DNA of 64,000 bases from Myxococcales bacterium (GTDB taxonomy: Bacteria; Myxococcota_A; Polyangia; Palsa-1104; JAEUJZ01): positions 30,613 through 94,612 of the forward strand of contig JAEUKB010000060.1 in assembly GCA_016794365.1 (NCBI GenBank), in the 5' to 3' direction. The position numbers and the translations under genes were made by a program. Below, in pieces: positions 9,858 to 50,185 of the stretch (positions within the stretch are counted from its first letter, which is position 1; every line of letters begins with the position of its first letter). The notes below the pieces were generated by a model. That model was given only the letters and a program-made list of their open reading frames with translations, was not told the DNA's origin and ran no database searches.

Positions 9858-10592
9858 TCAGCGACGTACGCGACCTTGGTTATCGACTTGTGCGTCGATG
9901 CCCAGCTCGTCAATGACGCGCTCGACGGCGGTTCGGTCTGATACGCACAGTCCCGCGTCCGCCATGCCTTCCACGATGCGGATCTTGATGCGACGGCTCT
10001 CTTCGGCTTTGTTGAGCAGCAGTCGCGTGAGCGGCTCGGCCACGACCTCTTGCTGACCTTGATGAAGCAGCGCTTCGACCGCTTTGAAGCGCACACCCTC
10101 GTCGATGTCTTCCAGGTATGGCAGCAGTAGCTCGGCGATCGCTGGATCGCGATGTTCACCCATGAAGTGAACGAGCTGCGTTTTTTTGCCGGGATCGCGC
10201 ACGTAGCTGTTGTCGTTTTGCTGACACAGTGCGCGCAGCGTCTCGCGGAAATCGTCACCTTTGGCGGTCTGCTCCAGCACCTTGAGCGCCCAGCCGAGCG
10301 TGTCGCTTTCCTTCATGTACTTGCGCAGCGCTGGCAGGACCTTGGTCCCCATCGCGACCAGCTCGTGGTAAATCCACTCTTTTTCTTGCTCGTCCTCGAT
10401 GGTCTTGTCGTAGACGAAGCTAAAGCGGCGCAAAAGGCCAATGATGGCTTCTTGGCTGCCATCGTCGCGGAGCAGCTCCAGCGCACGAAAGCGATCGGGG
10501 GACTGCGCGTGCTTGTCGCTCGCGCGCTGAATCATCTTCTGAAGGTTGCGGGCTTGCCGCCCTTCTTTGGTGAAAAAGTCTGCCAGGCCCAA
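9858..10592 (-). CDS. HEAT/ARM-repeat protein, hypothetical
   Basis: 244 aa. Repeated alpha-helical units with Leu/Ala/Glu periodicity typical of HEAT repeats ('IIGLLRRFSFVYDK...', 'PALRKYMKESDTLGWALKVLEQ', 'IAELLLPYLEDIDEGVRFKAVEALL'). Balanced composition, unlike the antisense ORFs around it. Confidence 0.55.
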   Translation of the reverse strand: MGLADFFTKEGRQARNLQKMIQRASDKHAQSPDRFRALELLRDDGSQEAIIGLLRRFSFVYDKTIEDEQEKEWIYHELVAMGTKVLPALRKYMKESDTLGWALKVLEQTAKGDDFRETLRALCQQNDNSYVRDPGKKTQLVHFMGEHRDPAIAELLLPYLEDIDEGVRFKAVEALLHQGQQEVVAEPLTRLLLNKAEESRRIKIRIVEGMADAGLCVSDRTAVERVIDELGIDAQVDNQGRVRR

Positions 10593-10706: not shown

Positions 10707-13463
10707 CTACTTACACAGCTCCATCCCGCGCTGAGCCTCGGGGTTTGAGCTGTTCGGTCCGTTGAGAACCTTGGTGTAGTAGATGCGCGCTTCTTTGCAG
10801 TTCTTCTGCTTGTAGTAGGCCTTCCCGAGGAGCAAGTAGACATCCTGGCTGGTGGCCTTGTTCTTGAGCGCTGCTTTGCCCCACTTGATCGCTTCGCCGT
10901 AACGGCCTCGTCCAAACTCTGCTTCGCCCATGCAGGCCAGCGCCAGACCGCGAATCTGCGCATTGCCCGCCGCTGCATAGCACAAGTTGAACGCCACTTC
11001 GTTGCGGCTCGCATTGATGGCCAAGCGACCTTCTTCAATTTTTCCAAGCGCCGCCGAGCGATCGATAAATGGCGGCATCGTCAGCGTCCCAAGCTTCTTG
11101 TTGCCGTCTCCGTCTTCTTTGTCCTTCTTCGGCGGCTGGACCTTGGTTGGACTCGGCTCGACGCTCACGGGCGGCTTGGTCGCTGTACCCGCGTCGGGCT
11201 GCTGCTGGACCACCACAACCGGCACTTGTCCGGCGTCTTGCACCTGTGGCGTCACCACTTTGATCGGTGCTGCATCGGGCTGCTGCTTCGGCGGCGGCTG
11301 CGTCATCACCCAATACATTGTCCCGAGCAGTCCGAGCAGACCACCCGCGAGCGCGATGCCTCCGATGACAATCGTCTTGGTTCCGCTTGGCTCCGGCTTG
11401 GCCGTTGGAATGTCCGTCGCTGACTTGCTCGGAGGCGGACGGCTTGGCACCAGCAGCACACCCGCCAAGATGTCCGACAAGATCTGCTGCATCTGGGTTG
11501 CAGCGTCGGCCATGCTCTGCGGACGCGCTTCGATCGAGCGCGCTAGCATTCGCATCACCAGCTTCGCCATCGCGTCGGGAACATCAGGCCGCAGGCTCGC
11601 AATCTCGACCGGATCTTCGGTCGCCTTGCGGATGAGAATGTCCATCATGTTCTCACCCGCAATCGGTGCCTTGCTCGTGAGCATCTCGTACAAGATCGCG
11701 CCCAGTGAGTACACGTCGCTGCGCGCATCGGCACCTTTGCCTGCCGCTTGCTCCGGTGCCATGTACTCGGGCGTGCCCATCGCCATGCCCGGCGTCGTCA
11801 GCTTCTGCTCTTTGGAATCTTCCAGCGACTTGGCAATCCCGAAGTCGAGCACCTTGACGAAGTCTTTGTTTCCGTCGCGATGAATCAGGAAGATGTTTTC
11901 CGGCTTCAAGTCACGATGGATGATGTTGCTCTGGTGCGCCGCTGACAGCGCGTGCGCAACCTGCGTTCCAATCGCCAGCGCGTCGGTCACCGGCAGACGC
12001 TTGTCTTTTTGCAGTCGCTGCGCCAGATCGATTCCTTCGAGCAGCTCCATCACAAAGTAGAACGAGCCATCGACGGTCGTGCCGCTGTCGGTCACTTCGA
12101 TGATGTTCGGATGTCCGATTCGCGACGCTGCACGCGCTTCCATCCGAAAGCGTGCGACCACTTCCGGCGTTCGTGAGTACACCGGATGCAAGATCTTGAT
12201 CGCGACTTTGCGACCAATTTCCGTGTGCTCTGCCTCGAAGACGCGACCCATTCCGCCTTCGCCGATCTTGCGCAGGATGCGCCAGCGCTCGATCACGGTG
12301 CCGAGCATCTTCCCGGTGTCGTACGCCGAGAGATTCTCCATCACCTGGCTCGGGATTTCGCCTTCGCGCAGCTTTCCTTTGTCGCCAGCCGTCGGGTTTT
12401 CAATCTCTTTTAAGATATCGGCCCGTCGCTGCGCTTTCTGTTCTGCCGCTTCACGCTCGGTCTGTGTCTGCTTTTGAATCGTTTGCAGACGCTCGTGGAC
12501 GTTTTCGAGCAGATCTTGTCTTTGCCGTCGCTCGCGCTCAATGTCTTCGTCGAACAGGTCGGCCATAAAGGCCTTCACCCGCTCTGAGTCCGTCGCGACG
12601 TAATCACGATTCGACGCCAAAAAAGCCGTCAGATCCGCACGAAACTGCTCGCCCGTCGCGTAGCGCTCGTCAGCATTCTTCGCCAGCGCTTTGAGCACGA
12701 TCTTGTCGAGCATCGCTGGCACTCGCGGCGCACGCACCGACGGAGGATCAATCAGCGGATTGCGTACTCGCTCGATCAGCTCGTGTCCTTCGGTGCCGTG
12801 CTGTGGAAAGAGCTGTCGTCCCGTCAGAAGCTCCCACAGGATGATGCCCGCCGCGTAGATATCGGTTCGTCCGTCGATCGGCTCGCCACGCGCTTGCTCG
12901 GGCGACATGTACGACACCTTGCCGTAGATGATGCCAGCGGCGGTCTTTTCCAGCTTCAGCGTCGAGCTAGCCAGACCAAAGTCCGTCAGCTTCACTTCTC
13001 CGTTGAAGCTAACCAGCACGTTCGGCGGTGAGACGTCGCGATGGACCAGCTTGATGTTGCCGAAGTTGTGCGCGTAGTGAAGTCCACGAGACAGCTCGCG
13101 AGCGATATGCACCGCAACATCGACGGGAAACGCAATTCCCTTTTTGGCGCAGCGATTCCACACAGCGCGCAGGTCTTTCCCGTCGATGTAGTCCATCGCC
13201 AGGTACAGCTCGGACTCGACCATGCCCGCGTCGAACACCGGGACCAAGTTGCCGTGCGACAGCCGTACAACGACCTTGGCCTCGTCGCGGAACCGATTCA
13301 CGTATTCCGGGTCAGCCAGGTGCGGCAGCACCGTCTTGATGACGCACAGCCGCTCCATTCCGCGATCACCGACGCAGGACAGATAAAGAGCTCCCATTCC
13401 ACCCTGAGCGAGCGGTGAGAGCAGCGTGTACCGACCGAACGGTCGCGGGAACTTATCGGCCAC
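10707..13463 (-). CDS. Ser/Thr protein kinase with two tandem kinase domains, TM segment, Pro-rich linker and C-terminal TPR domain
   Basis: 918 aa. Domain 1 (aa ~10-280): 'LAQGGMGALYLS', 'CVIK', 'HRDVSPPNVLV', 'DFG', 'SPE'. This is an atypical catalytic loop (VSPPN in place of LKPEN). Domain 2 (aa ~385-650): 'IGEGGMGRVFEAEH', 'VAIKIL', 'HRDLKPENIFL', 'DFGIAK', 'APE', fully canonical. Then a hydrophobic stretch 'IVIGGIALAGGLLGLLGTMYWV', a Pro/Gln-rich tract, and a TPR-like C-terminus. Confidence 0.85.
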   Translation of the reverse strand: MADKFPRPFGRYTLLSPLAQGGMGALYLSCVGDRGMERLCVIKTVLPHLADPEYVNRFRDEAKVVVRLSHGNLVPVFDAGMVESELYLAMDYIDGKDLRAVWNRCAKKGIAFPVDVAVHIARELSRGLHYAHNFGNIKLVHRDVSPPNVLVSFNGEVKLTDFGLASSTLKLEKTAAGIIYGKVSYMSPEQARGEPIDGRTDIYAAGIILWELLTGRQLFPQHGTEGHELIERVRNPLIDPPSVRAPRVPAMLDKIVLKALAKNADERYATGEQFRADLTAFLASNRDYVATDSERVKAFMADLFDEDIERERRQRQDLLENVHERLQTIQKQTQTEREAAEQKAQRRADILKEIENPTAGDKGKLREGEIPSQVMENLSAYDTGKMLGTVIERWRILRKIGEGGMGRVFEAEHTEIGRKVAIKILHPVYSRTPEVVARFRMEARAASRIGHPNIIEVTDSGTTVDGSFYFVMELLEGIDLAQRLQKDKRLPVTDALAIGTQVAHALSAAHQSNIIHRDLKPENIFLIHRDGNKDFVKVLDFGIAKSLEDSKEQKLTTPGMAMGTPEYMAPEQAAGKGADARSDVYSLGAILYEMLTSKAPIAGENMMDILIRKATEDPVEIASLRPDVPDAMAKLVMRMLARSIEARPQSMADAATQMQQILSDILAGVLLVPSRPPPSKSATDIPTAKPEPSGTKTIVIGGIALAGGLLGLLGTMYWVMTQPPPKQQPDAAPIKVVTPQVQDAGQVPVVVVQQQPDAGTATKPPVSVEPSPTKVQPPKKDKEDGDGNKKLGTLTMPPFIDRSAALGKIEEGRLAINASRNEVAFNLCYAAAGNAQIRGLALACMGEAEFGRGRYGEAIKWGKAALKNKATSQDVYLLLGKAYYKQKNCKEARIYYTKVLNGPNSSNPEAQRGMELCK

Positions 13464-13658
13464 AGTCGTTGCTTCATCCTAACACATGGAAACGTGCTTC
13501 TCTCGACCTGTCGCGCTGTCTATCGTCGCGAATCTGCGGAAGGATTTGTCCGACATACGGACAACGTCCGAATCTCGGACGAGCAGCGCAGCCCGCTTAC
13601 GCTGCACTCCGTCGCTGAAGCTCGATCCGAGCACTGGCACAGCTGATGCAAAAGCGCT

Positions 13659-14111
13659 GTGGTCATGAATGGCCTACTGATCGCAAACCAGCTTCTTTCC
13701 GCAGTGGATCGCTTGATGGCTCAGGTGGCAGACGATGTCGTCTTGCATGAAGGAATCGGACGAGAGCGTCAGCGCTTGCTCGTCTTGATTGAGCGTCACT
13801 TGGGCTGCTCGCTGTCATCTGCGCAGATACAGCGTCGGCTTCGTCGCTATCGGCTGAAGCGCAATGCCAGCGTTCGTCTCGGCTGCTATCGCGCACTGGC
13901 GCTTGGGCTGCTGCCCAGTCAGCGCTTCGATGTGCTGATGCTGCTGTATCGTCGCGCCATGGCTCGTCGCGCTTATAGCGGTTCTTCGTCGGAAACTCCG
14001 ATGTCTTCTTCGCCAGTTGTTTCAGCCGCGCCAGGCATCGGTGACAGCGACGGTGCTGCATCGCCACTGCTGCGAATGAACTTCAGCAGGACTTCAACGA
14101 TCTGCGCCTGA
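13659..14111 (+). CDS. Hypothetical small protein (uncertain)
   Basis: 150-aa ORF, divergent from the tandem-kinase gene, with acceptable composition. Its 3' end overlaps the convergent PBP4 gene by ~140 bp, which makes it doubtful. Confidence 0.25.
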   Translation: MVMNGLLIANQLLSAVDRLMAQVADDVVLHEGIGRERQRLLVLIERHLGCSLSSAQIQRRLRRYRLKRNASVRLGCYRALALGLLPSQRFDVLMLLYRRAMARRAYSGSSSETPMSSSPVVSAAPGIGDSDGAASPLLRMNFSRTSTICA

Positions 14112-19445: not shown

Positions 19446-21377
19446 CTAAAGCGCGCGCGGCTGCTGCACCAGTGGTCGAGGGGCTCCGGGGGCGCGCAGC
19501 TCCGTCGCCTTGGCAGTGACCGTCGGTTCATGACGCAGGATTTCTTCGGCCAGCTGTGCCGCATGTAACAGCATCTCTGGCGTACACACTCGCGGCGAGT
19601 AATACGCGTGTTCACAAAGCGCTGTCAGCGCTTCCAGCTTCTTCTGACCGTCGGCAGCGATGGGATGTGGCTTCCCCGCCGACAGTCGATCGTATAGCTC
19701 GCGCGGAGTCTGCGTCATCACCGACTCTCCGACGATTCCTTCGGCCACACGACGCCATTCCTGAAGCAGCCGTGTCCGGAGCGGCTCGATCCGAACGGTC
19801 ACCTGCCGAAGCTCTCCGCGATGGGGAATCGTCGCCAAAAACTGCTGCGAGAGATAACCCGGCGCGCCAATCCGAACCTGATAGCGCCCACTGTGCAGCG
19901 CTGGTGACACAAAGCCTCCCGTCGCGCTCGTCGTCACTGTGTGGAGTGGTTCCTCGGTGTTTCCATCCGCAAACACCAAGATCTGCGCGCTCACCGGGCT
20001 TCCGAAGGTCGCATCCAGCACTTGTCCGTCGATGTGAAAGTCCACGGCTCGGCGCAGGCTCGACAGCCGACTCATCGACGTAAGCTGAACACCGGGTTCG
20101 CCTTGTCGCACCTCTGTAAGCGCTGGGGTAGCGACGACATCCAAAGGCAACAGCGTCGATGGATTTTGTCGAGCCCGAAGCTCCTGAACAAGCGCTGTGG
20201 CAAGCCGGATCAGCTTGCGTCCAAGCACGATCCCGAGCCCGATCAGCACCGTCCCAATCAGCGGCAGCAGGAAATAGAGCAGCGAGATCGGCTCCGGCGG
20301 AAGCACTTGGACCGCAACTTCCGGCGAGCGACCCGGCAGGATATGACCTCGCCGAGGAAAGACCTGTGCAACGATCAGCGTCGGTCCCGGTGGCAGCATC
20401 AGCTTCGGGACCACAATCTCGAAGCGACCTTGCGCATCCGTTTCGGCATGTCCCAGGCTGCGCTTGCGCTGGCTCGAGTCCGCAACCGTCAAACCTTCGT
20501 CGCTCAGCGCTTCTAGCTCCACCAGCTCACTTGTAAGTGGTCCCGCTTCGTCGCGAACCACACCCGCAGCCGTCAGCTTGTTTCCTTGCGGAATCTCACC
20601 TGCGCCACTTGTAGACAGAAGCTGTAGCGTCACCACGGACTGCCCGAGCAGCAGCAGCTCTTGCTTGGTTTCCGACGGCGAATAGATTCGGCTCCCGGCA
20701 AACTGCGCGGTCAGCGTCACCCGATCGCCTGCTTTGCCAAGTCCTTGGCCTCGGTAGCGCTGCTCCAAATAGCCTTGGCTGACGGTGAGCTGCTCTCGCC
20801 TTGGTCCGATGCGCAGCACCACCGGCCCGTCAATCGGTTCGCCTTCGCTGCTGAGCTGAATCCGCAACGGCAGCTCGTCTGACAGCGCAATCCGAGGCGG
20901 TGCCCACAGCCGCACCTGGCTCTGCTGTCGGCCCATGTCGATCGCGAAGACGCCGCGTGCGGGATCTCGTAGTTCGTCGCCGCGATAGCTGGCCACGACG
21001 GTGTAGGCAGCGGGTGATACTCCGGCGCGCTCAAACGTCGCGGTTCCATCGTCGCTCGTGCGGCGGTCTCCCAAAAAGAGCGTGTCACCGTTGCCACGCA
21101 GCTCGACGTGAATCAAGCGATCCGCAAAGGCGCGATCGTCGCCAGCATCGCCGTCGCTTGGTGGCTGTCCGTCGGAAAGCTGGATCGTGAGCGTGACCCG
21201 AAACGTGTTCTTTCCATCGGGTCGTCGGCTCAGCTCACGCAGTCGAAGCTGGCTCTTTCCGCGTACCTTGAGCACGATCGCATCGTCGGCACGCGCGGTT
21301 CGAGGCTGGCTGACCCACAGGAGCTGACCCAGCATGGGCAGCGCCAGGCACCAAAACCAACGTGCCGAAAGCCGCAT
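19446..21377 (-). CDS. Hypothetical single-pass membrane protein with Ig-like / carboxypeptidase-regulatory-like domains
   Basis: Likely start at 'MRLSARWFWCLALPMLGQLLWVSQPRTARA' (signal; ATG at 21377). Repeated beta-rich units. TM segment 'LYFLLPLIGTVLIGLGIVLG'. Cytoplasmic tail holds a CarboxypepD_reg-like segment 'FADGNTEEPLHTVTTSATGGFVSPALHSGRYQVRIGAPGY'. Confidence 0.5.
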   Translation of the reverse strand: MRLSARWFWCLALPMLGQLLWVSQPRTARADDAIVLKVRGKSQLRLRELSRRPDGKNTFRVTLTIQLSDGQPPSDGDAGDDRAFADRLIHVELRGNGDTLFLGDRRTSDDGTATFERAGVSPAAYTVVASYRGDELRDPARGVFAIDMGRQQSQVRLWAPPRIALSDELPLRIQLSSEGEPIDGPVVLRIGPRREQLTVSQGYLEQRYRGQGLGKAGDRVTLTAQFAGSRIYSPSETKQELLLLGQSVVTLQLLSTSGAGEIPQGNKLTAAGVVRDEAGPLTSELVELEALSDEGLTVADSSQRKRSLGHAETDAQGRFEIVVPKLMLPPGPTLIVAQVFPRRGHILPGRSPEVAVQVLPPEPISLLYFLLPLIGTVLIGLGIVLGRKLIRLATALVQELRARQNPSTLLPLDVVATPALTEVRQGEPGVQLTSMSRLSSLRRAVDFHIDGQVLDATFGSPVSAQILVFADGNTEEPLHTVTTSATGGFVSPALHSGRYQVRIGAPGYLSQQFLATIPHRGELRQVTVRIEPLRTRLLQEWRRVAEGIVGESVMTQTPRELYDRLSAGKPHPIAADGQKKLEALTALCEHAYYSPRVCTPEMLLHAAQLAEEILRHEPTVTAKATELRAPGAPRPLVQQPRAL

Positions 21378-21481
21378 AGCCACCAGTATACGCAAAGACC
21401 AGCGTGTCACGTCGCTGGACATGGCGGGTCGTGGCTTCTTCTGCGGAGCCCGTAGCGACCCTGGTAGAGTCTTGCTTTCAG

Positions 21482-24349
21482 ATGTCACAAAGTCGGGCGA
21501 GTGGGGATGACTCTTTGTTCCCGGAGCCGCAGGGCCTTGTCGAGAAGCGCAAGCTGCCATCGGATGACTTGCCGCGCGGCGCTTCGATTGGTCGCTATCT
21601 CATCATTGAGCGACTCGGCAGCGGCGGGATGGGCGTGGTGTACTCGGCCTACGATCCGGATCTCAATCGCAGGGTCGCCATCAAGCTGCTGCGCAGTCAG
21701 CCCGGTGCGCTGGCTTCCCAAGGTCGAGCGCGGCTTCTGCGGGAAGCGCAGTCGATGGCGCGGCTCTCGCATCCGAATGTCGTGGCTGTCTTCGATGTCG
21801 GCGTCGCGTTTGACCAAGTATTCGTCGCGATGGAGTTTATCGAAGGTGTCACGCTGGGCGAATGGCTGCTTCGGCCCAAGCGCACCGAGGACATCTTGCG
21901 CGTCTTCGTCGAAGCCGGTCAGGGACTCGCCGCCGCCCACACAGCCGGAATCGTACACAGGGATTTCAAGCCCGACAACGTGATGATTGGGCGGGATGGG
22001 CGGGCGCGGGTGATGGACTTTGGCGTCGCACGCGATGTGGGCAAGCCGATTTCCGACCCCAGCATTGGCAGTGGACCCGAGCCGCTGTCGTCGAAAGAGC
22101 GCGCCAAGGTAGAGCTAGATCACACGCTGCCGGGTCAGTCGTCGGGTCGGCTGGCGGCACTGGCGGTTAGCTCTCCGCTGACCCAAGAAGGCGCGCTGAT
22201 GGGCACTCCGCGCTACATGTCGCCCGAGCAGTTTCGAGGACAACCGAGCGACGCGCGCAGCGACCAGTTCAGCTTTTGTATTGCACTGTACGAAGCGCTC
22301 TGTGGGCAGCCGCCCTTTGCCGGGGACAACCTGGGCGAGCTGGCGATGCAGGTGTTTCAAGGCAATGTGCGTGCGTTTCCGTCGGATAAGAAAGTGCCCA
22401 AGTGGCTGCGACGGGTGCTGCTGCGCGGGCTTTCGCTGAGGCCGCAAGACCGCTATCCGCAGCTCTCGACGCTGCTGGAAGACTTGTCGCTGGAGCGACG
22501 ACGACGTAAGCGACGACTGCTGCTCGCGATGACCTCGGCAGTGGTGCTGCTGTCGTCGCTGTTGGTCGGTGGCGGTATCTATCGCGGTCAGCAGGCACTG
22601 CGGGCGCAGCGCTGTGCCGAGGTGGAAGCGCAGCTTGAGCCGGTCTTTGGCGCGGCGATCAAAGACAAAGCGCGCGACGGGCTGCTCAAGACCAAGCGTC
22701 CGTATGCAAGTGATGTCTTTCGTCGGGTCGAGTCGAGCCTTTCGCACTATCTGGGCGATTGGCAGACGATGCGGCGCGATACCTGCGACGCGACCTTCAT
22801 TGCAGGCACGCAGAGCCAGGAACTACACGCTCGGCGTCTGCGCTGCCTCGATGCCAGGCTGCAAGAGGTCGCTGCCTTTATGAACTTGCTGTCGCAAGCC
22901 GATGAGCAGGTCTTAGACAGTGCCGTCGAACAGAGCAGCGATTTGGCCCTGCTGGAACAGTGCGCAGACCCACACTTTCTTCAGCAGCTTGTCAGCGAGC
23001 AAGAGGCGGCGCGCGAGCGGATCGATCAGCTCAGTCGCGAGCTATCGGAAGCGCGGCTGCTTCACAACAGCGGGCGTGTCCAAGTGGCCAAAGAGCGGGC
23101 GCAGCGGGTGCTTTCCGCAGCCCAGCAGCTTGGCAGCCTGCCCGTGCAAGCACGAGCCGAGCGAGAGCTGTCGCTCATCGAAAGCTCCAGCGGGGATCTG
23201 TATGCCGCCTATCGAGAAGCCGTGGCAGCAGCAGCGCTTGGCATTCGCGGTGGCGACTTTCTGACTGCGGCTGCGGCCTTTGCCGACCTTATGTACTTGT
23301 CGCACGCCACGCAGCAGGCCGGGATGGTCGAGCGCTGGCAGCAGTTTGGGCAGGCAACGCTCGCTCGAGTGGTGGGAAGTACCCAAGCCAAGGCGCGGAT
23401 TGCCGCGTCGATGGATCTCTACCTGTGTCAGCAAGCGTCCGTCGCTCGGAAGTGGCAGCAAGCAGACGAGCAGTGCGGTGCGGCTCTTCGTGATAGCGAG
23501 CGTCTGTTTGGCCCCGAAGCGGTGCAGGTGGCGACGGTGCTCAACAGCCTGGCGCTGCTGCATCGCAGGCAGGATCGCTTCCCGGAAGCCGAGTCGCTGT
23601 ATCGGCGCGCGCTGACGATTTCCGAAGTACACCTGGGCAGCGAGCATCCGCGCGTGCTGCCGATTCACGAAAACCTCGGCTACTTGCTCGAGCTGATGGG
23701 GAAATACGACGAAGCCGATGCCGAATATCAACAAGCGCTGCGCATCGGAGAGCACGCCTTTGGTCCAGAGCATCCCAAGCTGTACGGAACGCTGCGCTTT
23801 TTGGTGCAGCTTTCGCTTCGTCGCGGACAAGCGGATGCAGCGATTCCTTTGGCCGAGCGGGCGGCGGCAATCCTCAAAGGATCTCCGCGCGCGGTGACGG
23901 GAAAGATGCTGCTTGGGAACACGCTGGCGCGGGCCGGTCGCTACGAAGACGCGCTGCGGCTGCACCAAGAGTCGCTCGATCAGTGCAGTGGCAAGGTCTG
24001 TGGTCTGGAAATGCCGTCGCGGCTGCTCGCTGTCTCGGAAGATCTGCGGGGACTCGGTCGCGACAAGCAGGCACTGCCGCTTCTGGAACAGGCGCTGCGC
24101 CTACTGCCTTCGTCGGGTGAAGCTGAGCTGCGCGCGCGGCTTCAGTTTTCGCTGGCGCAGACGCTGTGGTCGATCGATGGCCCAAAGAGCCGAGAGCGCG
24201 TCTTCGATCTGGCCGACAGAGCGCGGAAGCAATACCTGGATCTGGGTCGTCAGCACAAAGTCGAAGCCGAGGAAGTGACCGATTGGCAAAAGCGCAACAA
24301 GCTACAGCCGCTTCCTTCTGCCGCTTCGCCAGTTGCACCTTCTCCCTAG
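21482..24349 (+). CDS. Ser/Thr protein kinase with TM segment and C-terminal TPR repeats
   Basis: Start 'MSQSRASGDD' at 21482. 'LGSGGMGVVYSA', 'VAIKLL', 'HRDFKPDNVMI', 'DFGVAR', 'SPEQ'. TM 'LLLAMTSAVVLLSSLLVGGGIY'. About 500 aa of TPR-like repeats follow ('AESLYRRALTISEVHLGSEHP...', 'AEYQQALRIGEHAFGPEHP'). Confidence 0.85.
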   Translation: MSQSRASGDDSLFPEPQGLVEKRKLPSDDLPRGASIGRYLIIERLGSGGMGVVYSAYDPDLNRRVAIKLLRSQPGALASQGRARLLREAQSMARLSHPNVVAVFDVGVAFDQVFVAMEFIEGVTLGEWLLRPKRTEDILRVFVEAGQGLAAAHTAGIVHRDFKPDNVMIGRDGRARVMDFGVARDVGKPISDPSIGSGPEPLSSKERAKVELDHTLPGQSSGRLAALAVSSPLTQEGALMGTPRYMSPEQFRGQPSDARSDQFSFCIALYEALCGQPPFAGDNLGELAMQVFQGNVRAFPSDKKVPKWLRRVLLRGLSLRPQDRYPQLSTLLEDLSLERRRRKRRLLLAMTSAVVLLSSLLVGGGIYRGQQALRAQRCAEVEAQLEPVFGAAIKDKARDGLLKTKRPYASDVFRRVESSLSHYLGDWQTMRRDTCDATFIAGTQSQELHARRLRCLDARLQEVAAFMNLLSQADEQVLDSAVEQSSDLALLEQCADPHFLQQLVSEQEAARERIDQLSRELSEARLLHNSGRVQVAKERAQRVLSAAQQLGSLPVQARAERELSLIESSSGDLYAAYREAVAAAALGIRGGDFLTAAAAFADLMYLSHATQQAGMVERWQQFGQATLARVVGSTQAKARIAASMDLYLCQQASVARKWQQADEQCGAALRDSERLFGPEAVQVATVLNSLALLHRRQDRFPEAESLYRRALTISEVHLGSEHPRVLPIHENLGYLLELMGKYDEADAEYQQALRIGEHAFGPEHPKLYGTLRFLVQLSLRRGQADAAIPLAERAAAILKGSPRAVTGKMLLGNTLARAGRYEDALRLHQESLDQCSGKVCGLEMPSRLLAVSEDLRGLGRDKQALPLLEQALRLLPSSGEAELRARLQFSLAQTLWSIDGPKSRERVFDLADRARKQYLDLGRQHKVEAEEVTDWQKRNKLQPLPSAASPVAPSP

Positions 24350-36754: not shown

Positions 36755-38329
36755 TTACGCTCCAACGTAGGACGGCGAGCCGTGACGCGCCACCACGAGC
36801 GTCTGATCGTCTTCTAGCTCTGCCGATCCGACAAAGCGCGAGACTTCGCCGATCAGCATCTCGCAGATTTCTTCGACGTTGCGGTTGGCGCCGCGCTGGA
36901 CGGTGTGACGGACGCGCTTGTCGCCGAACTGATCGCCGTTGCCGTTCTGGGCTTCGATGAGTCCGTCTGTGTAGCAGATCAAGATGTCGCCGGGCTCAAA
37001 CGGCTGGGTGTTGGCGACGAACTTGGCGGTATCGCTCGAACCAAGTGGCGAGCCCGCAGCGACGAGCGGAATAAACGGCTTGGTGGTTTCTCGATGACGA
37101 AACAGCAGCGGGAAGGCGTGGGCACCACTGGCGAAAGTGATCTGACATTCCTTGATGTCGATGATGGCGGCAAAGCAGCTCATCGTGAACTTGCCGCGCA
37201 TCGTGGCGGCAATCGCGTGGTTGAGTCGCTGGAGCAGCAGCTCGGGGCGGAGCTTCGGACCTTGCTCTTCGTGCAGGTTCTGCGCACAGCCATAGGCCAT
37301 CGCACCCACGACTGCCGAGCCGATGCCGTGTCCAACAACATCAGCCATGACCAGCATCGTGCGGTGCTCATCAAGCGGATAGTAGTGCCACCAGTCTCCC
37401 GACAGCTTGCTGGCGCTGCGATACACCCCACAGAGCTGGAGCGCGCCGCGAGAGATGCGTCGCACATCCGGCATCAGCGTCTGCTGAACGATCTGGGCAT
37501 CTTGAAGCTCTTGCGCCATGCGCGAGGTGTGCGCGGTGCCTTCGAGCTGCGCTTGCTGAAGGAGCTGCGCTTGGTCAGCCATCATGTTCAGTCGCTCGGC
37601 AATCGCCGCAAACGCGGGCACTTCCACTGGCGTCAGACGTGTCTCGAAGTGACCCATCGCCATCTGCTCCGCGACTTCTTGGACCACCATCGCTTGCTTT
37701 TCGCGCTTGCGATCCCCGAGCACCCACATCGCGAGCGCCACACCGACACCCAAGATGCCGAGCCCGATCGTCAGCCAGACCGGAATCCGCTGCGGCTGCA
37801 CGGTGGTCACCACTTTGCCAAGTCCATCTTCGATTTCAGCGGTGGTTAGCTCGACGTAAAGAAGGCCTTTGCTGCCCGGCTGTCCCGTCACAGGAACCGC
37901 CAGCACGACGCGCTGCTGTTGCGGCGAGGCTTCGACCTTGCGAACAAAGCCTTCCCCGACCGCTTTGCGCAGCAGCTCTTCGGCATGACCGACGAGTGGC
38001 TTTCCGGCGCGTGGCTTTTCCGAAGACGCCACCACGGTCAGGTCATGATCGACGACACCGATTTCAACCAGGTCCGGGTCGCTCTGGGCTGCGCTGTCTA
38101 GCTCGGCTTGCAGCTTGGTCAGGTCGCCTTCCGCCATCGCTGCGCTGATGCGCTGTCCGAGCTTTTCCGCTCGCTTTTGCGATCGCAAGTACACCGACTC
38201 AATCGCCACCTTCTGCGCAACGATCTGGGCGCGCCGCGCTGGGCTGTCGGTGATGCTCAGCATGAGCTGAAGTAGTAGGCACAAGATGCCTCCCGAGGCG
38301 ATGAGAAGCGGAATCCGTTGCTCGGACAT
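36755..38329 (-). CDS. Membrane sensor PP2C-family Ser/Thr phosphatase (TM, periplasmic domain, TM, HAMP, SpoIIE/PP2C)
   Basis: 524 aa. TM1 'IPLLIASGGILCLLLQLMLSI'. TM2 'WLTIGLGILGVGVALAMWVL' followed by a HAMP-like helix. PP2C/SpoIIE core 'SGDWWHYYPLDEHRTMLVMADVVGHGIGSAVVGAM', 'ILICYTDGLIEAQ'. Confidence 0.85.
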   Translation of the reverse strand: MSEQRIPLLIASGGILCLLLQLMLSITDSPARRAQIVAQKVAIESVYLRSQKRAEKLGQRISAAMAEGDLTKLQAELDSAAQSDPDLVEIGVVDHDLTVVASSEKPRAGKPLVGHAEELLRKAVGEGFVRKVEASPQQQRVVLAVPVTGQPGSKGLLYVELTTAEIEDGLGKVVTTVQPQRIPVWLTIGLGILGVGVALAMWVLGDRKREKQAMVVQEVAEQMAMGHFETRLTPVEVPAFAAIAERLNMMADQAQLLQQAQLEGTAHTSRMAQELQDAQIVQQTLMPDVRRISRGALQLCGVYRSASKLSGDWWHYYPLDEHRTMLVMADVVGHGIGSAVVGAMAYGCAQNLHEEQGPKLRPELLLQRLNHAIAATMRGKFTMSCFAAIIDIKECQITFASGAHAFPLLFRHRETTKPFIPLVAAGSPLGSSDTAKFVANTQPFEPGDILICYTDGLIEAQNGNGDQFGDKRVRHTVQRGANRNVEEICEMLIGEVSRFVGSAELEDDQTLVVARHGSPSYVGA

Positions 38330-38332
38330 GTC

Positions 38333-39799
38333 TTACTTGCTCCCTTGCTGGCTCTTCGAGGTGGCGGGGTCGCGACGCAAGATCACCACGGTGAGATCGC
38401 GGGTCGGGTTGCCGACGAACGCATGGACGACATCGAGCAGATGGTCGCGTAGCTCGGCGGCGGTGCTGGTGCGCGCAGTCTTGCGGATTTCATCGATCAG
38501 CACGTCTGCGGACAGGCGCTGATTTTGGATGTTGCGTGCGTCGGTGATGCCATCGGTCAGAAGGATCAGCGCATCACCGGGCGCCAGCTGCACCGAGCGA
38601 TCGCTGAGCGCTTCATCGAGCTGCGTGGAAACAGCCAGCCCGGCGCGATCGACTTGGATCGTCTCTACCGTGCGATTTCCGTCGCGATAGAGCAGCAGCA
38701 GCGGGAGATGGCCCGAAAACGTCACCTTGCCGCCACCGTCGTGACGCAGCAGCAGCACCGAGACCATCTGCTCGTCTTGCATCCGCTTGCGCAGACACTC
38801 GTAGAGCGACGCTGCAACCTGACGCAGCACAGCAGCGGGCGAGGCATCTTTTTTCTGGTTCAGACGCAGGCTGGCTTGCAGCAGGCTATCGACGATCACC
38901 ATCGTGAGTCCCGGCTGGACGCCACTGCCCGAGATGTTGCCGACTGCGACAAAGCCGACCTGCTCGCCTTGGTAGGTCTCGTAAAAGTCGCCGCCACCAC
39001 CGGGAGCCGGGATGATCCGGGCCGAAAACTCAAAGCCACTCATCGATGGATGAAGTGGCAGAAGCTGACTGCGCAGCCGAGCCGCCAGGGCCGCTTCTCG
39101 CTCGTGCGCGGCGGTGCTCTGTAGCTCGTCTTGGGTTCCGCGCAGCTTGCGGATCATCTGTTCCAGACCGTGCGCCACGGCGGTGAGCTCATCGTTGCCA
39201 CCGTGCGGCAAGTCCACGTCGAAGTGACCGCCCGCGACCTGCTGCATCGCCGCGAGCAGTCGTCGCACCCGACCCATCAGCAGCAGTCCCCACAGCCCCG
39301 AGATGAGCAGCGCGAGCAGTACGGCTCCGCGTCCGACGGCAAACAGCGTCGTCTGAACGGTCTTGGCTCGCTCAATGACACCATCGAGAGATCGCACCAG
39401 ACAGCCGTGACTGCTTGGCCCCAGAGAGACGGTGATGCTGCGATAACGGCTGCCAGAGATCTGCTGCTCAGAGATCTCGGTGCTGCGGCTGGCCTGACAG
39501 CGTGTCTCGACGGTGGCTTGGTCGCGTTCTAGCTCTTTGCTGAGCTTTTTGTCGCTGAGCTGACCTTCGCGAATCACCAGCCAAGACAAGCCGGGTCGCG
39601 CCAGATCCTTTAAGACCTCTTCGACCAGCTGACCCGAGCGCAGGGCATGCTGAACGATGCGTGCGTCACTGCGCAGCTCGGCATCGACTTCTTGCTGTCC
39701 GGCACGGCGCAGCGACTGAGTAAACACCCAGCTTGTGGTCGCCACCACCGTTCCTACCAGCGCCGTCGATAACAGCGCCAACTTGATCCCAAGCTTCAA
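38333..39799 (-). CDS. Membrane sensor PP2C-family Ser/Thr phosphatase (TM, periplasmic domain, TM, HAMP, SpoIIE/PP2C), paralog of the downstream gene
   Basis: 488 aa. TM1 'LALLSTALVGTVVATTSWVF'. TM2 'AVLLALLISGLWGLLLM'. HAMP 'RVRRLLAAMQQVAGGHFDVDLPHGGNDELTAVAHGLEQMIRKL'. PP2C 'GGGDFYETYQGEQVGFVAVGNISGSGVQPGL', 'LILLTDGITDARN'. 3-bp gap to the next gene. Confidence 0.85.
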   Translation of the reverse strand: MKLGIKLALLSTALVGTVVATTSWVFTQSLRRAGQQEVDAELRSDARIVQHALRSGQLVEEVLKDLARPGLSWLVIREGQLSDKKLSKELERDQATVETRCQASRSTEISEQQISGSRYRSITVSLGPSSHGCLVRSLDGVIERAKTVQTTLFAVGRGAVLLALLISGLWGLLLMGRVRRLLAAMQQVAGGHFDVDLPHGGNDELTAVAHGLEQMIRKLRGTQDELQSTAAHEREAALAARLRSQLLPLHPSMSGFEFSARIIPAPGGGGDFYETYQGEQVGFVAVGNISGSGVQPGLTMVIVDSLLQASLRLNQKKDASPAAVLRQVAASLYECLRKRMQDEQMVSVLLLRHDGGGKVTFSGHLPLLLLYRDGNRTVETIQVDRAGLAVSTQLDEALSDRSVQLAPGDALILLTDGITDARNIQNQRLSADVLIDEIRKTARTSTAAELRDHLLDVVHAFVGNPTRDLTVVILRRDPATSKSQQGSK

Positions 39800-46579: not shown

Positions 46580-48340
46580 CTATTTGCTCGGTCGATTGGG
46601 GCCGCCGCCGAGAGACGACTGGCTGGCCTGAATGGTGGCGTTCTGTCCGGCACGGATGGTCTGGCGTGAGACGAACTCCTCGAAGCCGTTTTTGGTGACG
46701 TGGATGGATACCGACCACTCGGGCGCGCCCGTGGCCGAGGTCAGCTCGTGCTGCACTTCGCCGCTGCCAGGCACAATGCCGATGTCCAGAAAGTCAATCG
46801 ACACGCGAGAGCCGGGAAGCGCGCGCACCGTCAGCTTCGCTGGACCTTTGGGTCGCTGCACAGCGGGTAGCGTCGTCGGTGGCAGTGGATTGATTGGGAC
46901 CGTGTTTTGCGGCCACAAGAGCAGCAGCGCCAGCACCGCAACGCCAATGGCCGCACCCGCGAAGATAAAGACCAAGCGCCGAAGCTGTCCGCTGCTCGGT
47001 GGCGGTGCGACTTCATACGCTGGCGGTGCCGTCTGCGAGTATCCACCGGGCTGAATGTGCATCCCGCTGACCATCGGACCGGACATCATGCCCGACTGGC
47101 TCATCGCCATCGGAGCATTGACCATCCCCGACGGGTTCATCGCCATCGGCGCGCCGATCATTCCGCTCTGATGCATTCCCATCGGAGCTTGGACTTGACC
47201 TGGAACGCCGTAAGGACCGGGCTGCATCATCATCTGCGGCGCATAGCCCGGTGCGCCCATTCCCATCGGAATCACTCCCGGCGGAAAGGCTCCGGCGCGC
47301 ATCGACATCGAGGGATCCGCCATCGGTGGCGCGGGCATCACCGGAGCAACGGCTAGCTCTCCGTCGATGGCTTGCGCAAACTCGGTCATCGTCTGGAACC
47401 GGCGCGTGCGCTCTTTGTCCATTGCACGCAGGCAGATGGCTTCCAGATCGGGCGGGACATTGCGACTGCGACGGCTCGGCGGCTCCGGCGCTTCAAACAT
47501 GTGCTTGGTCAGCGTGCCCATGTACGTCTCGGCGTGGAAGGGCACTCGTCCCGTCAGCATTTCGTACAAGATGCAGCCCAGCGCATAGATGTCTACGCGA
47601 TGATCCGGCGTCTCGCCACGCGCTTGCTCGGGCGACATGTATTCGGCGGTACCAAAGATCATGCCGCTTTGGGTCAGTCGTCCGCCGGGACCACCACCGC
47701 CCGATTCCATCGTCGTCATCTTGGCGATGCCGAAGTCGAGGATCTTTACAAAGTCGGACTTGCCCTCTTTTTCGACGAGATAGATGTTTTCCGGCTTGAG
47801 GTCGCGGTGGACGATGCCCTTTTGGTGTGCCGCTGCGAGCGCGCGACAGAGCTGACCCATGATCAGACGAATGCGCTGTACCGTCAGCGCGCCGGATTCG
47901 GCAATGACGTGCGCCAGATCGTGACCTTCCAGAAACTCCATCGTGAAGAAGACAGAGCCGGAAGCTGTCTCGCCGAAGTCGTGGACCTCGACGATGTTTT
48001 CGTGACCAATCCGAGCCGCCGCGCGGGCTTCCTGAATGAAGCGCTGCACCAGATCGGGCTTCGACGCAAAGTCCTGCGACAGGATCTTGATTGCGACCCG
48101 ACGCTCGATCATGACGTGCTCAGCCAGGTACACCGCGCCCATCCCGCCAGCACCGAGCTTCTTGATGATCTTGTACCGATCGTTTAGCAGCATTCCGATG
48201 TACGGATCTTGAACCTCGGCAAGCTGCTTCAGCACCGCAGCTTCGCGCGCATCGAGGGCGCTGCCCGGAGACGAGTCTTTTGCTCCCAGCTTTGCGCCCG
48301 GCTGCGACGATGCGTCGTCGAGTTTGGGGGGATTTGGCAC
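46580..48340 (-). CDS. Ser/Thr protein kinase with Pro/Met/Gly-rich linker, TM segment and C-terminal extracytoplasmic domain
   Basis: 'LGAGGMGAVYLAEH', 'VAIKIL', 'HRDLKPENIYLV', 'DFGIAK', 'SPEQ'. Linker 'PMGMGAPGYAPQMMMQPGPYGVPGQ'. TM 'LVFIFAGAAIGVAVLALLLLW'. Confidence 0.85.
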   Translation of the reverse strand: MPNPPKLDDASSQPGAKLGAKDSSPGSALDAREAAVLKQLAEVQDPYIGMLLNDRYKIIKKLGAGGMGAVYLAEHVMIERRVAIKILSQDFASKPDLVQRFIQEARAAARIGHENIVEVHDFGETASGSVFFTMEFLEGHDLAHVIAESGALTVQRIRLIMGQLCRALAAAHQKGIVHRDLKPENIYLVEKEGKSDFVKILDFGIAKMTTMESGGGGPGGRLTQSGMIFGTAEYMSPEQARGETPDHRVDIYALGCILYEMLTGRVPFHAETYMGTLTKHMFEAPEPPSRRSRNVPPDLEAICLRAMDKERTRRFQTMTEFAQAIDGELAVAPVMPAPPMADPSMSMRAGAFPPGVIPMGMGAPGYAPQMMMQPGPYGVPGQVQAPMGMHQSGMIGAPMAMNPSGMVNAPMAMSQSGMMSGPMVSGMHIQPGGYSQTAPPAYEVAPPPSSGQLRRLVFIFAGAAIGVAVLALLLLWPQNTVPINPLPPTTLPAVQRPKGPAKLTVRALPGSRVSIDFLDIGIVPGSGEVQHELTSATGAPEWSVSIHVTKNGFEEFVSRQTIRAGQNATIQASQSSLGGGPNRPSK

Positions 48341-48439: not shown

Positions 48440-50185
48440 CTACTTACCGCGTGAAAACGGATCGCGAAGTCCCGTCGGAAGCGAGGCCGGAGAAGACTTG
48501 CCGGTTGGCTTTTTGGAGTCTCCGTTCTTGGGCTTGTCCGTGGCCTTTGCATCGCTCTTTTTGGCATCAGGACGCGACTTGCGAGACGATCCACCGATCT
48601 TTTCGAGCGGCACATCCACGTCCTGATCTTTTTCGGGCTGCATGTCTTCCGCGTACATCTCGAAGCCTTTGCGTCGCAGCTCCAGATGCATCGGCTGACC
48701 TTTTTTCTGCGAGATCCGCAGCGGCGTAATGCCTCGCACTTCCCCATCGACCACAACCTCCGCACCCGGCGGCTTGGTGGTGATCATCAGATAGACCGGG
48801 CCGGACTCGGCGGTCTTGGTTGGCTGCACCGGCTGAATCACCGGATCCACTTTGGTGGTGATCGGCTTCGGCGGGATCGGCGGCGGCACCGTTGGCTTTT
48901 GCTGCTCTTGGAACAGCAGGAAATACAAAAGGAGCCCAATCACCGCGACCAGCACCACGGCGACGCCAATCAGCACCGGCTTGAGCCCTTTGCCCGAGTC
49001 TACAGCCGAGCTTTTCCCTGTTGGACGCGGCGAGCTGGTTGCTCCCATCGCCTGTGGAAACTGCGCAATCGGCTGCGGAAACATGCCCGGCTGAACGCCC
49101 ATCGCAGGAACCATCGGCTGCTGAAAGCTGGGCTGCGACGGATAGCTCGGCATCTGCGGTGCCGGAACCTGGCCACTGGTTGGCGCTGGCGGACTGACCA
49201 TGCCGGGATCGTCGATGACGATCCGTCCGCCTTTCATCTCTTGTTCGACTTGGGTGAGCGCCTGCTCTAGCTCTTTCATCGACGGGAAGCGCGCTTCCGG
49301 CTTTTTGGCCATCGCGCGAATCACCACTGCGTCGAGTGATGCAGGAATCTTCAGCTCTGGCTTGCGCTTCCGAGGCGGAATGACTGGCTCGAAGACGTGC
49401 TTGGTCAGCGTCTGCGCCGGGCGATCCCCGAGGAACGGCACCACGCCGGTCAGCATCTCGTACATGATGCAGCCCGTCGCGTACTGGTCAACGCGGTGAT
49501 CGGTTTCCTGTCCGGTTGCTTGCTCCGGCGACATGTATTCCGGCGTCCCGAGCACCATTCCGACCTGCGTCAGCTTTTGGCCCGAGCCCACCTTGGCGAT
49601 GCCGAAGTCCACGATCTTGACGAAGTCTTTTTGCCCCTCTCGCTCGAGGAGAAAGATGTTTTCCGGCTTGAGATCGCGGTGGACGATGCCCTTTTGGTGC
49701 GCGGCGTTCAGTCCTCGTCCCATCTGCGCCGCGATCGTGCAGACCCGAGCCGGCTCGAGCGGTCCTTCCTGGATCGCCTGCGCCAGCGTCTGGCCTTGCA
49801 AAAACTCCATGACAAAGTAGGCATGACCGTCGGGAAGAACGCCGAAGTCGGTGATGTCTACGATGTTGCTGTGACCGATCTTCGACGCCGACTTGGCTTC
49901 CTGAATGAAGCGCTGCACCGCCGCTGTGTCCTGGGCTGCTTCTTTGCGCAGGATCTTGATCGCAACCGGCTTGTCGATAAGAACGTGGCGCGCCTTGTAG
50001 ACAACGCCCATGCCACCTTCACCGAGCCTCGATTCGATGGCGTAGCGACCATCAATCGTGGTGCCAAGCAGCGGATCAGCCTCGACCTCTTTGGCTGCCG
50101 AGGTGTTTGGCAACGGGGACCCATCCCGTGGGCAAAACTCAAGCACGTCCGGGTACTTGATCTGACACTGGGGACAAGTCTTCAC
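48440..50185 (-). CDS. Ser/Thr protein kinase with N-terminal zinc-ribbon, TM segment and C-terminal PEGA-like domain
   Basis: 'MKTCPQCQIKYPDVLEFCPRDG' (C-x2-C...C-x4-D ribbon). 'LGEGGMGVVYKARH', 'VAIKIL', 'HRDLKPENIFLL', 'DFGIAK'. TM 'VLIGVAVVLVAVIGLLLYFLLF'. PEGA-like 'ITTKPPGAEVVVDGEVRGITPLRI'. Confidence 0.85.
   Translation of the reverse strand: MKTCPQCQIKYPDVLEFCPRDGSPLPNTSAAKEVEADPLLGTTIDGRYAIESRLGEGGMGVVYKARHVLIDKPVAIKILRKEAAQDTAAVQRFIQEAKSASKIGHSNIVDITDFGVLPDGHAYFVMEFLQGQTLAQAIQEGPLEPARVCTIAAQMGRGLNAAHQKGIVHRDLKPENIFLLEREGQKDFVKIVDFGIAKVGSGQKLTQVGMVLGTPEYMSPEQATGQETDHRVDQYATGCIMYEMLTGVVPFLGDRPAQTLTKHVFEPVIPPRKRKPELKIPASLDAVVIRAMAKKPEARFPSMKELEQALTQVEQEMKGGRIVIDDPGMVSPPAPTSGQVPAPQMPSYPSQPSFQQPMVPAMGVQPGMFPQPIAQFPQAMGATSSPRPTGKSSAVDSGKGLKPVLIGVAVVLVAVIGLLLYFLLFQEQQKPTVPPPIPPKPITTKVDPVIQPVQPTKTAESGPVYLMITTKPPGAEVVVDGEVRGITPLRISQKKGQPMHLELRRKGFEMYAEDMQPEKDQDVDVPLEKIGGSSRKSRPDAKKSDAKATDKPKNGDSKKPTGKSSPASLPTGLRDPFSRGK

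Follow-up and report, generated by a model that had tools for sequence, protein, structure and literature searches.

A putative tandem-kinase receptor of the Polyangia in which loss of the catalytic-loop lysine is paired with a basic residue in the P+1 loop

We analyzed a stretch of 64,000 nucleotides (nt), hereafter the window, from a Myxococcales bacterium (assembly GCA_016794365.1, contig JAEUKB010000060.1, positions 30,613 to 94,612), which encodes a protein of 918 amino acids (aa) with two kinase domains in tandem. In the first of these domains, D1, the Lys of the catalytic loop is replaced by Ser, and a Lys occupies a position of the P+1 loop at which canonical kinases have Thr. In the kinase domains that we compared, the loss of the first Lys is accompanied by Lys or Arg at the second position, and this pairing is a new finding. 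From the N to the C terminus, the protein consists of D1, a charged helix of ~60 residues, a second kinase domain (D2), one transmembrane (TM) segment, a Pro-rich spacer, and a tetratricopeptide repeat (TPR) domain of three repeats. Its sequence indicates that it is probably a bitopic receptor kinase of uncultured Polyangia, with two probably active kinases and a closer resemblance to RSK/MSK than to JAK.

The exchange can be described by two positions, the catalytic-loop residue HRD+2 and APE-5, which lies five positions before the Ala of the APE motif; both were tabulated in about 480 kinase domains. Canonical pairs account for 221 of them, with Lys at HRD+2 and either Thr (211 domains) or Ser (10 domains) at APE-5. 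The swapped pairs number 247 and comprise Ser with Lys (209 domains), Ala with Arg (15), Ser with Arg (10), Thr with Lys (4), Cys with Arg (3), Asn with Lys (3), and Ala with Lys, Thr with Arg, and Gly with Arg (1 domain each). Other combinations were found in about 10 domains in which the APE motif is present, and these are the exceptions. Both types coexist in the 918-aa kinase, which has S145/K182 in D1 and K520/T564 in D2. APE-5 is the single column most informative about the type of catalytic loop (mutual information of 0.94 bit), and 13/13 unrelated kinase domains encoded in ~1 Mb of flanking DNA follow the same pairing, 11 with Lys and Thr/Ser and 2 with Ser and Lys.

These two positions are known to be coupled. 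In active Ser/Thr kinases, the Thr or Ser at APE-5 forms a hydrogen bond with the HRD+2 Lys, a “C-terminal anchor” that shapes the acceptor site, and tyrosine kinases have altered the same pair, with Pro at APE-5 and Arg at HRD+4 (PMC10979876). A review of Hanks kinases agrees in general terms on the HRD+2/APE-5 pair (PMC6213207). A Lys or Arg in the catalytic loop was reported in all eukaryotic protein kinases (ePKs) and is considered necessary for protein kinase activity (PMC4702295), and lysines that are relocated or supplied in trans have precedents in WNK, POMK, and Bud32/Kae1 (PMC13519141). Text searches for the motifs HRDVSP, HRDISP, and HRDLSP returned no relevant literature match, and the exchange is undescribed in the literature that we reached, a scope outside which the main myxobacterial kinome paper falls.

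Further support comes from the variation tolerated by the family. A basic APE-5 residue is found in 121 of 128 dereplicated lineages that lack Lys at HRD+2. Within this clade, HRD+2 may be Ser, Ala, Thr, Cys, Asn, or Gly and APE-5 may be Lys or Arg; the maintenance of a basic residue at APE-5 despite variation at both positions argues for a function.

All features of the kinase gene given below lie on the minus strand of the window. D1 (12609..13433, aa 11-285) is supported by its Pfam match, its invariant catalytic residues, and the lowest nonsynonymous substitution rate (dN). Scanned separately against PF00069, whose gathering score is 31.7 bits, D1 matched with 123.8 bits (E of 1e-35, aa 13-269, profile positions 2-253 of 263) and D2 with 175.6 bits (E of 1.7e-51, aa ~395-652). 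This confirms that one chain holds two Hanks-type kinase domains in tandem, as a preliminary description drawn from the sequence had proposed, and excludes the possibility, raised there, that D1 might not be kinase-like. The same description listed a Gly loop, a “CVIK” Lys, HRD, DFG, and SPE in D1, and each of them is present (AQGGMG, LCVIK with K43, E61, HRDVSPPN at 141-148, DFG at 161-163, and SPE at 187-189). It was also right that the catalytic-loop Lys is missing: the loop (13020..13043, aa 141-148) has Ser145 at HRD+2 and no basic residue after the Asp. Among 118 homologues, it reads HRDVSPPN in 109, HRDISPPN in 8, and HRDVAPPN in 1, so that 117/118 conform to HRD[VI]SPPN. The P+1 loop, GKVSYMSPE (12897..12923, aa 181-189), contributes Lys182 at APE-5.

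Despite this substitution, the catalytic set of beta-3 Lys, helix-C Glu, HRD Asp, loop Asn, DFG Asp, APE Glu, and F-helix Asp is complete in D1, and 81 aligned homologues show no variation at residues K43, E61, H141, R142, D143, N148, D161-F-G, P188, E189, D201, and R267. Judged by column conservation, D1 is the best-conserved part of the protein, and its dN values (0.022-0.107, versus 0.042-0.204 for D2) are the lowest of all regions in 12/12 pairwise comparisons; the synonymous rate (dS) is close to saturation in these comparisons, which makes the dN/dS ratios rough and leaves the ranking by dN unaffected. By this sequence evidence, D1 is no decayed copy. Among solved structures it is closest to PknB, StkP, and PknA (E of 1e-41 to 1e-35), and the best match in the PDB is Mycobacterium tuberculosis PknB, with ~33% identity (E of 1.3e-41). 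In the alignment with PknB, E172 of D1 stands opposite T171 and T174 opposite T173, both of them phosphosites of PknB; E172 and T174 are both invariant in a 22-sequence alignment. Since D1 retains the HRD Arg, phosphorylation of its activation loop should matter. Read off the sequence, both kinase domains also display an RF motif in helix C, a G-loop Met, and a gatekeeper Met, which are the marks of bacterial Ser/Thr kinases (bSTKs) in the bSTK Atlas preprint (bioRxiv 10.1101/2025.01.12.632604).

Domains are classed as pseudokinases when they lack at least one of three residues, VAIK Lys, HRD Asp, and DFG Asp (PMC13519141; bSTK Atlas preprint). D1 falls outside this definition, because K43, D143, and D161 are all present and invariant, and by sequence it does not correspond to a pseudokinase partner of the type found in JAK or in plant tandem kinase proteins (TKPs), a comparison suggested in the preliminary description that finds no support here. 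What D1 does lack is the catalytic-loop Lys/Arg of ePKs (K168 in PKA), and it has its basic residue at APE-5 instead.

D2 (11469..12293, aa 391-665) is a PknB-like domain and, as anticipated, fully canonical. It contains GEGGMG, VAIK (K423), HRDLKPEN (nt 11895-11918, aa 516-523), DFG, APE, and the P+1 loop GTPEYMAPE, with residues K423, E442, D518, K520, N523, D540, T564, and E571 all in place; the catalytic loop is HRDLKPEN in 102 of the 118 homologues and HRDMKPEN in 12. The two domains are joined by a single long helix predicted by AlphaFold2 (AF2) (12399..12587, aa 293-355), 59% of which is E, R, K, Q, or D, followed by a disordered linker (aa 356-390) in which the predicted local distance difference test (pLDDT) score is below 50 at residues 356-378. 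An AF2 model of the two-kinase unit (aa 1-680, 81 aligned homologues, mean pLDDT of 86.2) gave confident individual domains, with pLDDT above 90 except in the activation loops (164-180 in D1 and 543-561 in D2, both below 50), but not a confident mutual placement, as its predicted template modeling (pTM) score is 0.54. When this model was compared with the PDB by Foldseek, only single-domain matches were obtained (PknB, PknA, and PknI; query-normalized TM-score [TMq] of ~0.36), and none of them was a two-domain template like JAK or RSK. An intramolecular regulatory pair, as first suggested, appears plausible from the sequence.

The gene is one unbroken open reading frame (ORF) (10707..13463), with a GTG start at 13463 and a stop codon at 10707-10709. 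An in-frame TAG lies 5 codons 5′ of the GTG, and the start sequence GTGGCCGAT is unchanged across 8 aligned loci; for these reasons, the GTG is the only start that retains strand beta-1 and the Gly loop. The closest homologues are a protein with 95% identity (P0001) and, at the level of loci, a metagenome-assembled genome (MAG) of Polyangia encoding a product with 90% identity (L001). A protein search returned 120 best clusters, all above 840 bits, and 117 of the 121 sequences (query included) carry both catalytic loops in one polypeptide. This recurrence excludes the concern that two adjacent kinase genes had been joined by a frameshift or a misassembly: the same single ORF is found in more than 100 independent assemblies, 12 of 12 close loci are free of internal stops, and the DNA between the two domains behaves as a coding sequence, with its helix under purifying selection (dN/dS of 0.04-0.23 across these 12 loci). 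We found no evidence in favor of such an artefact among these data and consider its probability negligible.

The C-terminal part of the protein also conforms to the preliminary description, which had a TM segment, a Pro-rich linker, and a TPR-like domain following D2; hydropathy, composition, and a fold match now bear this out. The TM segment (11304..11372, aa 698-720) has a mean Kyte-Doolittle hydropathy of 2.06 over 19 residues, and an equivalent hydrophobic segment is found in 111/119 homologues. Arg and Lys residues on its N-terminal, cytoplasmic flank indicate a topology with the kinases inside and the C terminus outside. The extracytoplasmic spacer that follows (11064..11303, aa 721-800) is fast evolving and has 16 Pro in 78 residues; for the wider region of aa 666-800, TM segment included, dN/dS ranges from 0.19 to 1.1. 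The three-repeat TPR domain with its capping helix (10710..11063, aa 801-918) is extracytoplasmic as well. AF2 predicted seven helices for the C-terminal 137 residues with high confidence (pLDDT of 93.7 and pTM of 0.86), and Foldseek matched this model to the designed protein CTPR3 and to the TPR domains of Hop, SGT, and RPAP3 (target-normalized TM-scores of 0.75-0.86, root mean square deviation of ~2 Å). The Pfam matches are just above cutoff (TPR_2, 27.7 versus 27; TPR_11, 27.5 versus 26.8), and the domain has the tandem helix-turn-helix repeats of ~34 residues, arranged in a right-handed superhelix, that characterize the TPR fold. Cysteines 828, 844, 889, and 917 of this domain are all four present in 25/25 of the closest homologues, and none is present in the other 25. 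An all-or-none pattern of this kind is expected of two disulfides in an extracytoplasmic domain, and the four cysteines probably form two such bonds, gained in one subclade.

Automatic pipelines would probably misname this family as “PASTA kinase.” The 918-aa protein scored 550 bits with NCBIfam NF033483 (PknB_PASTA_kin), above the cutoff of 450, by matching profile positions 6-271 of 563 twice; the cutoff is passed because the scores of the two kinase domains add up. No PASTA repeat was matched by Pfam at E ≤ 0.1, and the extracytoplasmic domain is the TPR.

The tandem arrangement is widespread in its own lineage. When one genome per GTDB species was scanned, a relative was encoded in 453 species-level genomes of the class Polyangia (Myxococcota), and the best 80 loci all matched the query across both kinase domains (80/80); they belong to MAGs labeled Polyangia, Kofleriaceae, Haliangiales, Nannocystineae, or “Myxococcales/Deltaproteobacteria.” The view that such architectures are uncommon in bacteria may therefore hold in general but fails within this lineage. 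A search with D1 alone among 1.84 billion representatives retrieved 122,004 proteins at E ≤ 1e-30. If architectures are written as the HRD+2 residue of each kinase domain in order, the best 150 D1 matches include S-K (46 proteins), S (21), S-S (13), K (9), A-K (8), K-K (7), and K-S (6). Proteins with several kinase domains are frequent among the relatives of D1, some having up to 6. Four giant proteins (P0144, P0162, P0183, and P0189; 2,457-2,592 aa) match D1 in 5-6 separate stretches, which indicates up to six Hanks kinase domains per chain; their readable loops are mostly of the canonical K type. Two-domain or atypical-loop kinases of Myxococcus xanthus are reportedly mentioned, perhaps, by Perez et al. 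in 2008 and in the Pkt/Psk nomenclature of Inouye. A genomic survey of signaling in the Myxococcaceae and a review of Hanks kinases (PMC6213207) contain nothing on tandem bacterial kinases, and within the literature that we reached this architecture has drawn no comment and exists only as a database entry.

D1 and D2 share 32% identity. In a neighbor-joining tree of 270 dereplicated kinase domains, they fall in separate clades, and the domains without a catalytic-loop Lys, including those of single-domain S, S-S, and K-S proteins, form one clade of 121 dereplicated lineages. HRDx[S/A/T]PxN loops characterize this large D1 clade of bacterial kinases. The low identity together with the separate clades shows the protein to be a fusion of two kinase lineages rather than the product of duplication and subsequent decay.

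In this receptor topology, the periplasmic TPR domain is tethered, through the Pro-rich spacer and the TM helix, to the two cytoplasmic kinase domains; D2 lies next to the membrane, and D1 is distal to it on the long charged helix. We propose that a ligand or partner bound by the TPR domain would bring about dimerization, and dimerization would lead to phosphorylation of the D2 activation loop at T556/T557. Active D2 might then phosphorylate D1 at T174, and D1 would act as the output kinase, in a two-step relay within one chain as in RSK/MSK. We favor this order, D2 and then D1, because T174 is invariant and aligns with T173 of PknB and because D1 retains the HRD Arg. Within D1, Lys182 may reach back into the active site and give the gamma-phosphate and the transition state the positive charge normally provided by the catalytic-loop Lys. 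That D1 binds ATP and is catalytically active, with K182 replacing that Lys, seems to us an evenly balanced proposition. A broader proposal is considerably more tentative. The exchange might define an undescribed class of “swapped C-terminal anchor” kinases, active through the P+1-loop Lys and either gated by the ordering of the activation segment or endowed with a different acceptor specificity; under this proposal, the S-K receptor would correspond in bacteria to the RSK-type two-kinase relay and be ancestrally wired to REC-PATAN/CheA-like motility regulators.

Several observations weigh against an active D1 and the relay. In the D1 Gly loop, Ala stands in place of the first Gly. Parsimony on the kinase-domain tree requires 5 changes of loop state and 6 changes of P+1 state, so that the co-variation mostly reflects one ancient event kept by selection, with few independent replications, and 7 dereplicated domains without Lys at HRD+2 have no basic residue at APE-5. 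The APE-5 Lys could instead form a salt bridge with D143 and lock an inactive state, and the literature yielded no biochemical data for members of the swapped clade. Moreover, the AF2 pTM of 0.54 supports no confident D1-D2 interface or mutual placement, so that the order of the relay is a guess.

Some of these points would suit a D1 that binds nucleotide but is catalytically silent, steering D2 allosterically in the manner of JAK JH2-JH1 or the plant TKPs, with K182 paired to D143 or S145 and fixing a conformation. The loss of the catalytic-loop Lys, thought necessary for protein kinase activity (PMC4702295), and the Ala in the Gly loop are compatible with this explanation; pseudokinases may be highly conserved and still bind ATP (PMC13519141), and the tandem placement permits an intramolecular interaction. 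However, the three defining residues are invariant, and D1 keeps the Mg-binding Asn148, the HRD Arg, and an activation loop with the conserved Thr174, which would be superfluous in a purely structural module. Loops of this type are also found in single-domain and S-S proteins, in which there is no canonical partner to regulate, and the domain originated by fusion and not as a decaying duplicate. We regard a silent D1 as the main rival explanation, though on the whole an unlikely one. Less probable still is a D1 that is active on a changed acceptor, be it through tyrosine or dual specificity, a small molecule, or water in an ATPase switch, so that D1 and D2 would serve different classes of substrates. 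The tyrosine kinases remodeled the same pair for acceptor specificity (Ala at HRD+2, Arg at HRD+4, and Pro at APE-5; PMC10979876), small-molecule eukaryotic-like kinases (ELKs) generally lack the catalytic-loop Lys/Arg (PMC4702295), and NCBIfam models of Bud32, an ATPase that receives its Lys in trans (PMC13519141), fit D1 (residues 56-178) better than D2. Nevertheless, D1 retains the protein-substrate lobe of bSTKs, with its extended activation segment, SPE, D201, and R267, it is nearest to PknB, StkP, and PknA among solved structures, and it lacks the tyrosine kinase signature, with neither Arg at HRD+4 nor Pro at APE-5.

Two NCBIfam models also raised the idea of a kinase from a phage-defense system, either PglW of BREX type 2 or MAD6 of MADS, since antiphage_MADS6 scored 302 bits over four stretches and BREX_PglW aligned with residues 55-546, spanning both domains. 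These scores are far under the curated cutoffs (302 versus 460 and 143 versus 990). The neighbors are housekeeping or envelope genes (HEAT, S13 peptidase, RadC, GH31, and CTP synthase). Partners such as a methyltransferase, PglX/Z, or an ATPase are absent nearby, and the gene is syntenic and vertically conserved across the Polyangia. We therefore reject the defense reading, on its sub-cutoff scores and the absence of neighboring defense genes, as highly improbable. As a side observation, the PglW alignment, which forms one stretch and scores far below cutoff, suggests that PglW may also hold two kinase-like domains at a similar spacing.

Among known systems, the 918-aa kinase resembles the bSTKs of the PknB/PknA/StkP type in its fold, its sequence marks, and the order of its parts, in which a TM segment C-terminal to the kinase leads to an extracytoplasmic sensor. 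It differs from them in having two kinase domains, a TPR rather than a PASTA sensor, and, in D1, Ser at HRD+2 with Lys at APE-5. With RSK/MSK of animals it shares the linkage of two complete kinases of different lineages in one chain: D2 is canonical, and D1 is complete by sequence but for the relocated Lys. RSK/MSK have all catalytic residues in both domains and are the model of a sequential intramolecular relay; they are soluble, and ERK and PDK1 activate them. Beyond the kinase fold, the 918-aa protein has no specific homology to RSK/MSK, and a relay in it would be an analogy. JAK JH2-JH1 and the plant proteins of the WTK/TKP type likewise combine tandem kinase folds with one atypical active site, and some plant TKPs also carry a TM segment (PMC11006675). 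JH2 of JAK2 has lost canonical residues, as in HRN or DPG (PMC13519141). In contrast to these atypical domains, D1 is better conserved than its partner, has a matched and compensating change, and keeps the VAIK Lys, HRD Asp, and DFG Asp.

The logic of the exchange is reminiscent of WNK and POMK, in which an essential active-site Lys is absent from its usual motif and supplied by a neighboring element, making motif-based calls of a “dead kinase” wrong (PMC13519141). In WNK, the beta-3 VAIK Lys has moved to beta-2, whereas in D1 the HRD+2 Lys would have moved to APE-5. For WNK and POMK, both eukaryotic, experiments have proven the compensation. Tyrosine kinases (HRDLAARN, with Pro at APE-5) are similar to D1 in that HRD+2 and APE-5 have changed together and the positive charge has moved, though they have Arg at HRD+4 and Pro at APE-5, and D1 has Pro and Lys at the respective positions. 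Finally, the bSTK Atlas defines two Myxococcota-specific families, Myxo1 and Myxo2, the first with a C-terminal TM segment or TPR (bioRxiv 10.1101/2025.01.12.632604). Myxo1 fits the 918-aa kinase in architecture and taxon when compared by its family description, and the Atlas text mentions neither “tandem” nor “P+1” nor a substitution at HRD+2.

Immediately downstream of the kinase gene, 114 bp after its stop codon, lies a gene for a 244-aa HEAT-repeat protein (9858..10592, minus strand; Pfam HEAT_2). It directly follows the kinase gene in 16 loci and is found a few kilobases away in 3 more. No terminator-like site was seen on the minus strand in the 114-bp gap; the HEAT gene is likely cotranscribed with the kinase gene, and its product is a possible partner of the kinase. 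The upstream side has genes for an S13 D-Ala-D-Ala carboxypeptidase, a hypothetical protein of 283 aa, and RadC. Since these neighbors and the HEAT gene are confined to relatives of ~60% identity or more, their synteny says little about function.

A different neighbor characterizes the wider family. Of the 66 loci whose upstream flank is long enough, 49 have a divergent gene encoding REC+DUF4388 within 2.5 kb of the kinase start, and in 15 of those 49 a CheA-like hybrid kinase is found beyond it. The REC+DUF4388 arrangement is that of most family members outside the subclade of the window, among loci L016 and L018-L080 (for example, L018:4405-5853 and L018:1866-4154), and in L012 and L015 a REC-HisKA-HATPase gene takes its place. 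DUF4388 is the PATAN domain, and its cyanobacterial fusions to REC bind the type IV pilus motor (bioRxiv 10.1101/2021.06.11.447907). No homologue of the REC+DUF4388 protein is encoded in the window, and the link is ancestral to the kinase family and was lost at this locus. This neighbor hints at a role in motility or polarity control.

The control region upstream of the kinase gene (13464..13658), defined by its sequence and an alignment of 8 loci, is shared with a divergent ORF. Within 13466-13490, the element TGTGnTAGGAT is invariant in the 8 loci and stops 15 nt short of the GTG. It may act either as an extended -10 box, in which case the mRNA would be nearly leaderless, or as a ribosome-binding site with a long spacing. 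Two adjoining GTCCG-N5-CGGAC palindromes, GTCCGAgatTCGGAC and TGTCCGtatgtCGGACA, follow at about 13547-13580, and their arms co-vary between loci (GTCCGA..TCGGAC versus TCCGG..CCGGA), a pattern that suggests operator sites or a hairpin. The first 107 nt of the region have ~90% DNA identity in L003 and L017, and a promoter and terminator scan gave nothing beyond shuffle expectation. The divergent ORF (13659-14111, plus strand) encodes 150 aa, has no Pfam hit, is rich in Arg and Leu, and is probably helical. Its product is kept at the same position in 14 related loci with only 30-57% identity, so that it evolves much faster than its neighbors, and 139 nt of the ORF lie within the 3′ end of the S13 peptidase gene.

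The window is rich in kinase genes. Elsewhere in it are three more, all canonical, with Lys at HRD+2 and Thr at APE-5 (21404-24349, plus strand; 46580-48340 and 48440-50185, minus strand), and two adjacent genes for SpoIIE/PP2C-type phosphatases (36755-38329 and 38333-39799, minus strand). One of these kinases has a long activation-loop insert and cytoplasmic TPRs, another has a PEGA domain, and one of the phosphatases carries a HAMP domain. An ORF of 704 aa (19446-21560, minus strand), with a CarboxypepD_reg domain as its sole match in Pfam, runs opposite to the kinase-TPR gene at 21404-24349 and shares ~150 nt with the 5′ end of that gene.

Kinome surveys based on motifs would either accept swapped-anchor domains as normal kinases or mark them as doubtful for want of the catalytic-loop Lys and, in both cases, miss the coordinated exchange of two residues that touch in the active site. 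The analysis also corrects a likely automatic misannotation of this family as “PASTA kinase.” If our interpretation of the relocated Lys holds true, it would be the second natural case, after WNK, of an essential kinase Lys moving to a neighboring element, and it would make catalysis depend directly on an ordered activation segment. No bacteria have larger kinomes than the Myxococcota, and since the exchange is the mark of a large clade among them, many of their multi-kinase proteins may combine two mechanistically distinct types of kinases.

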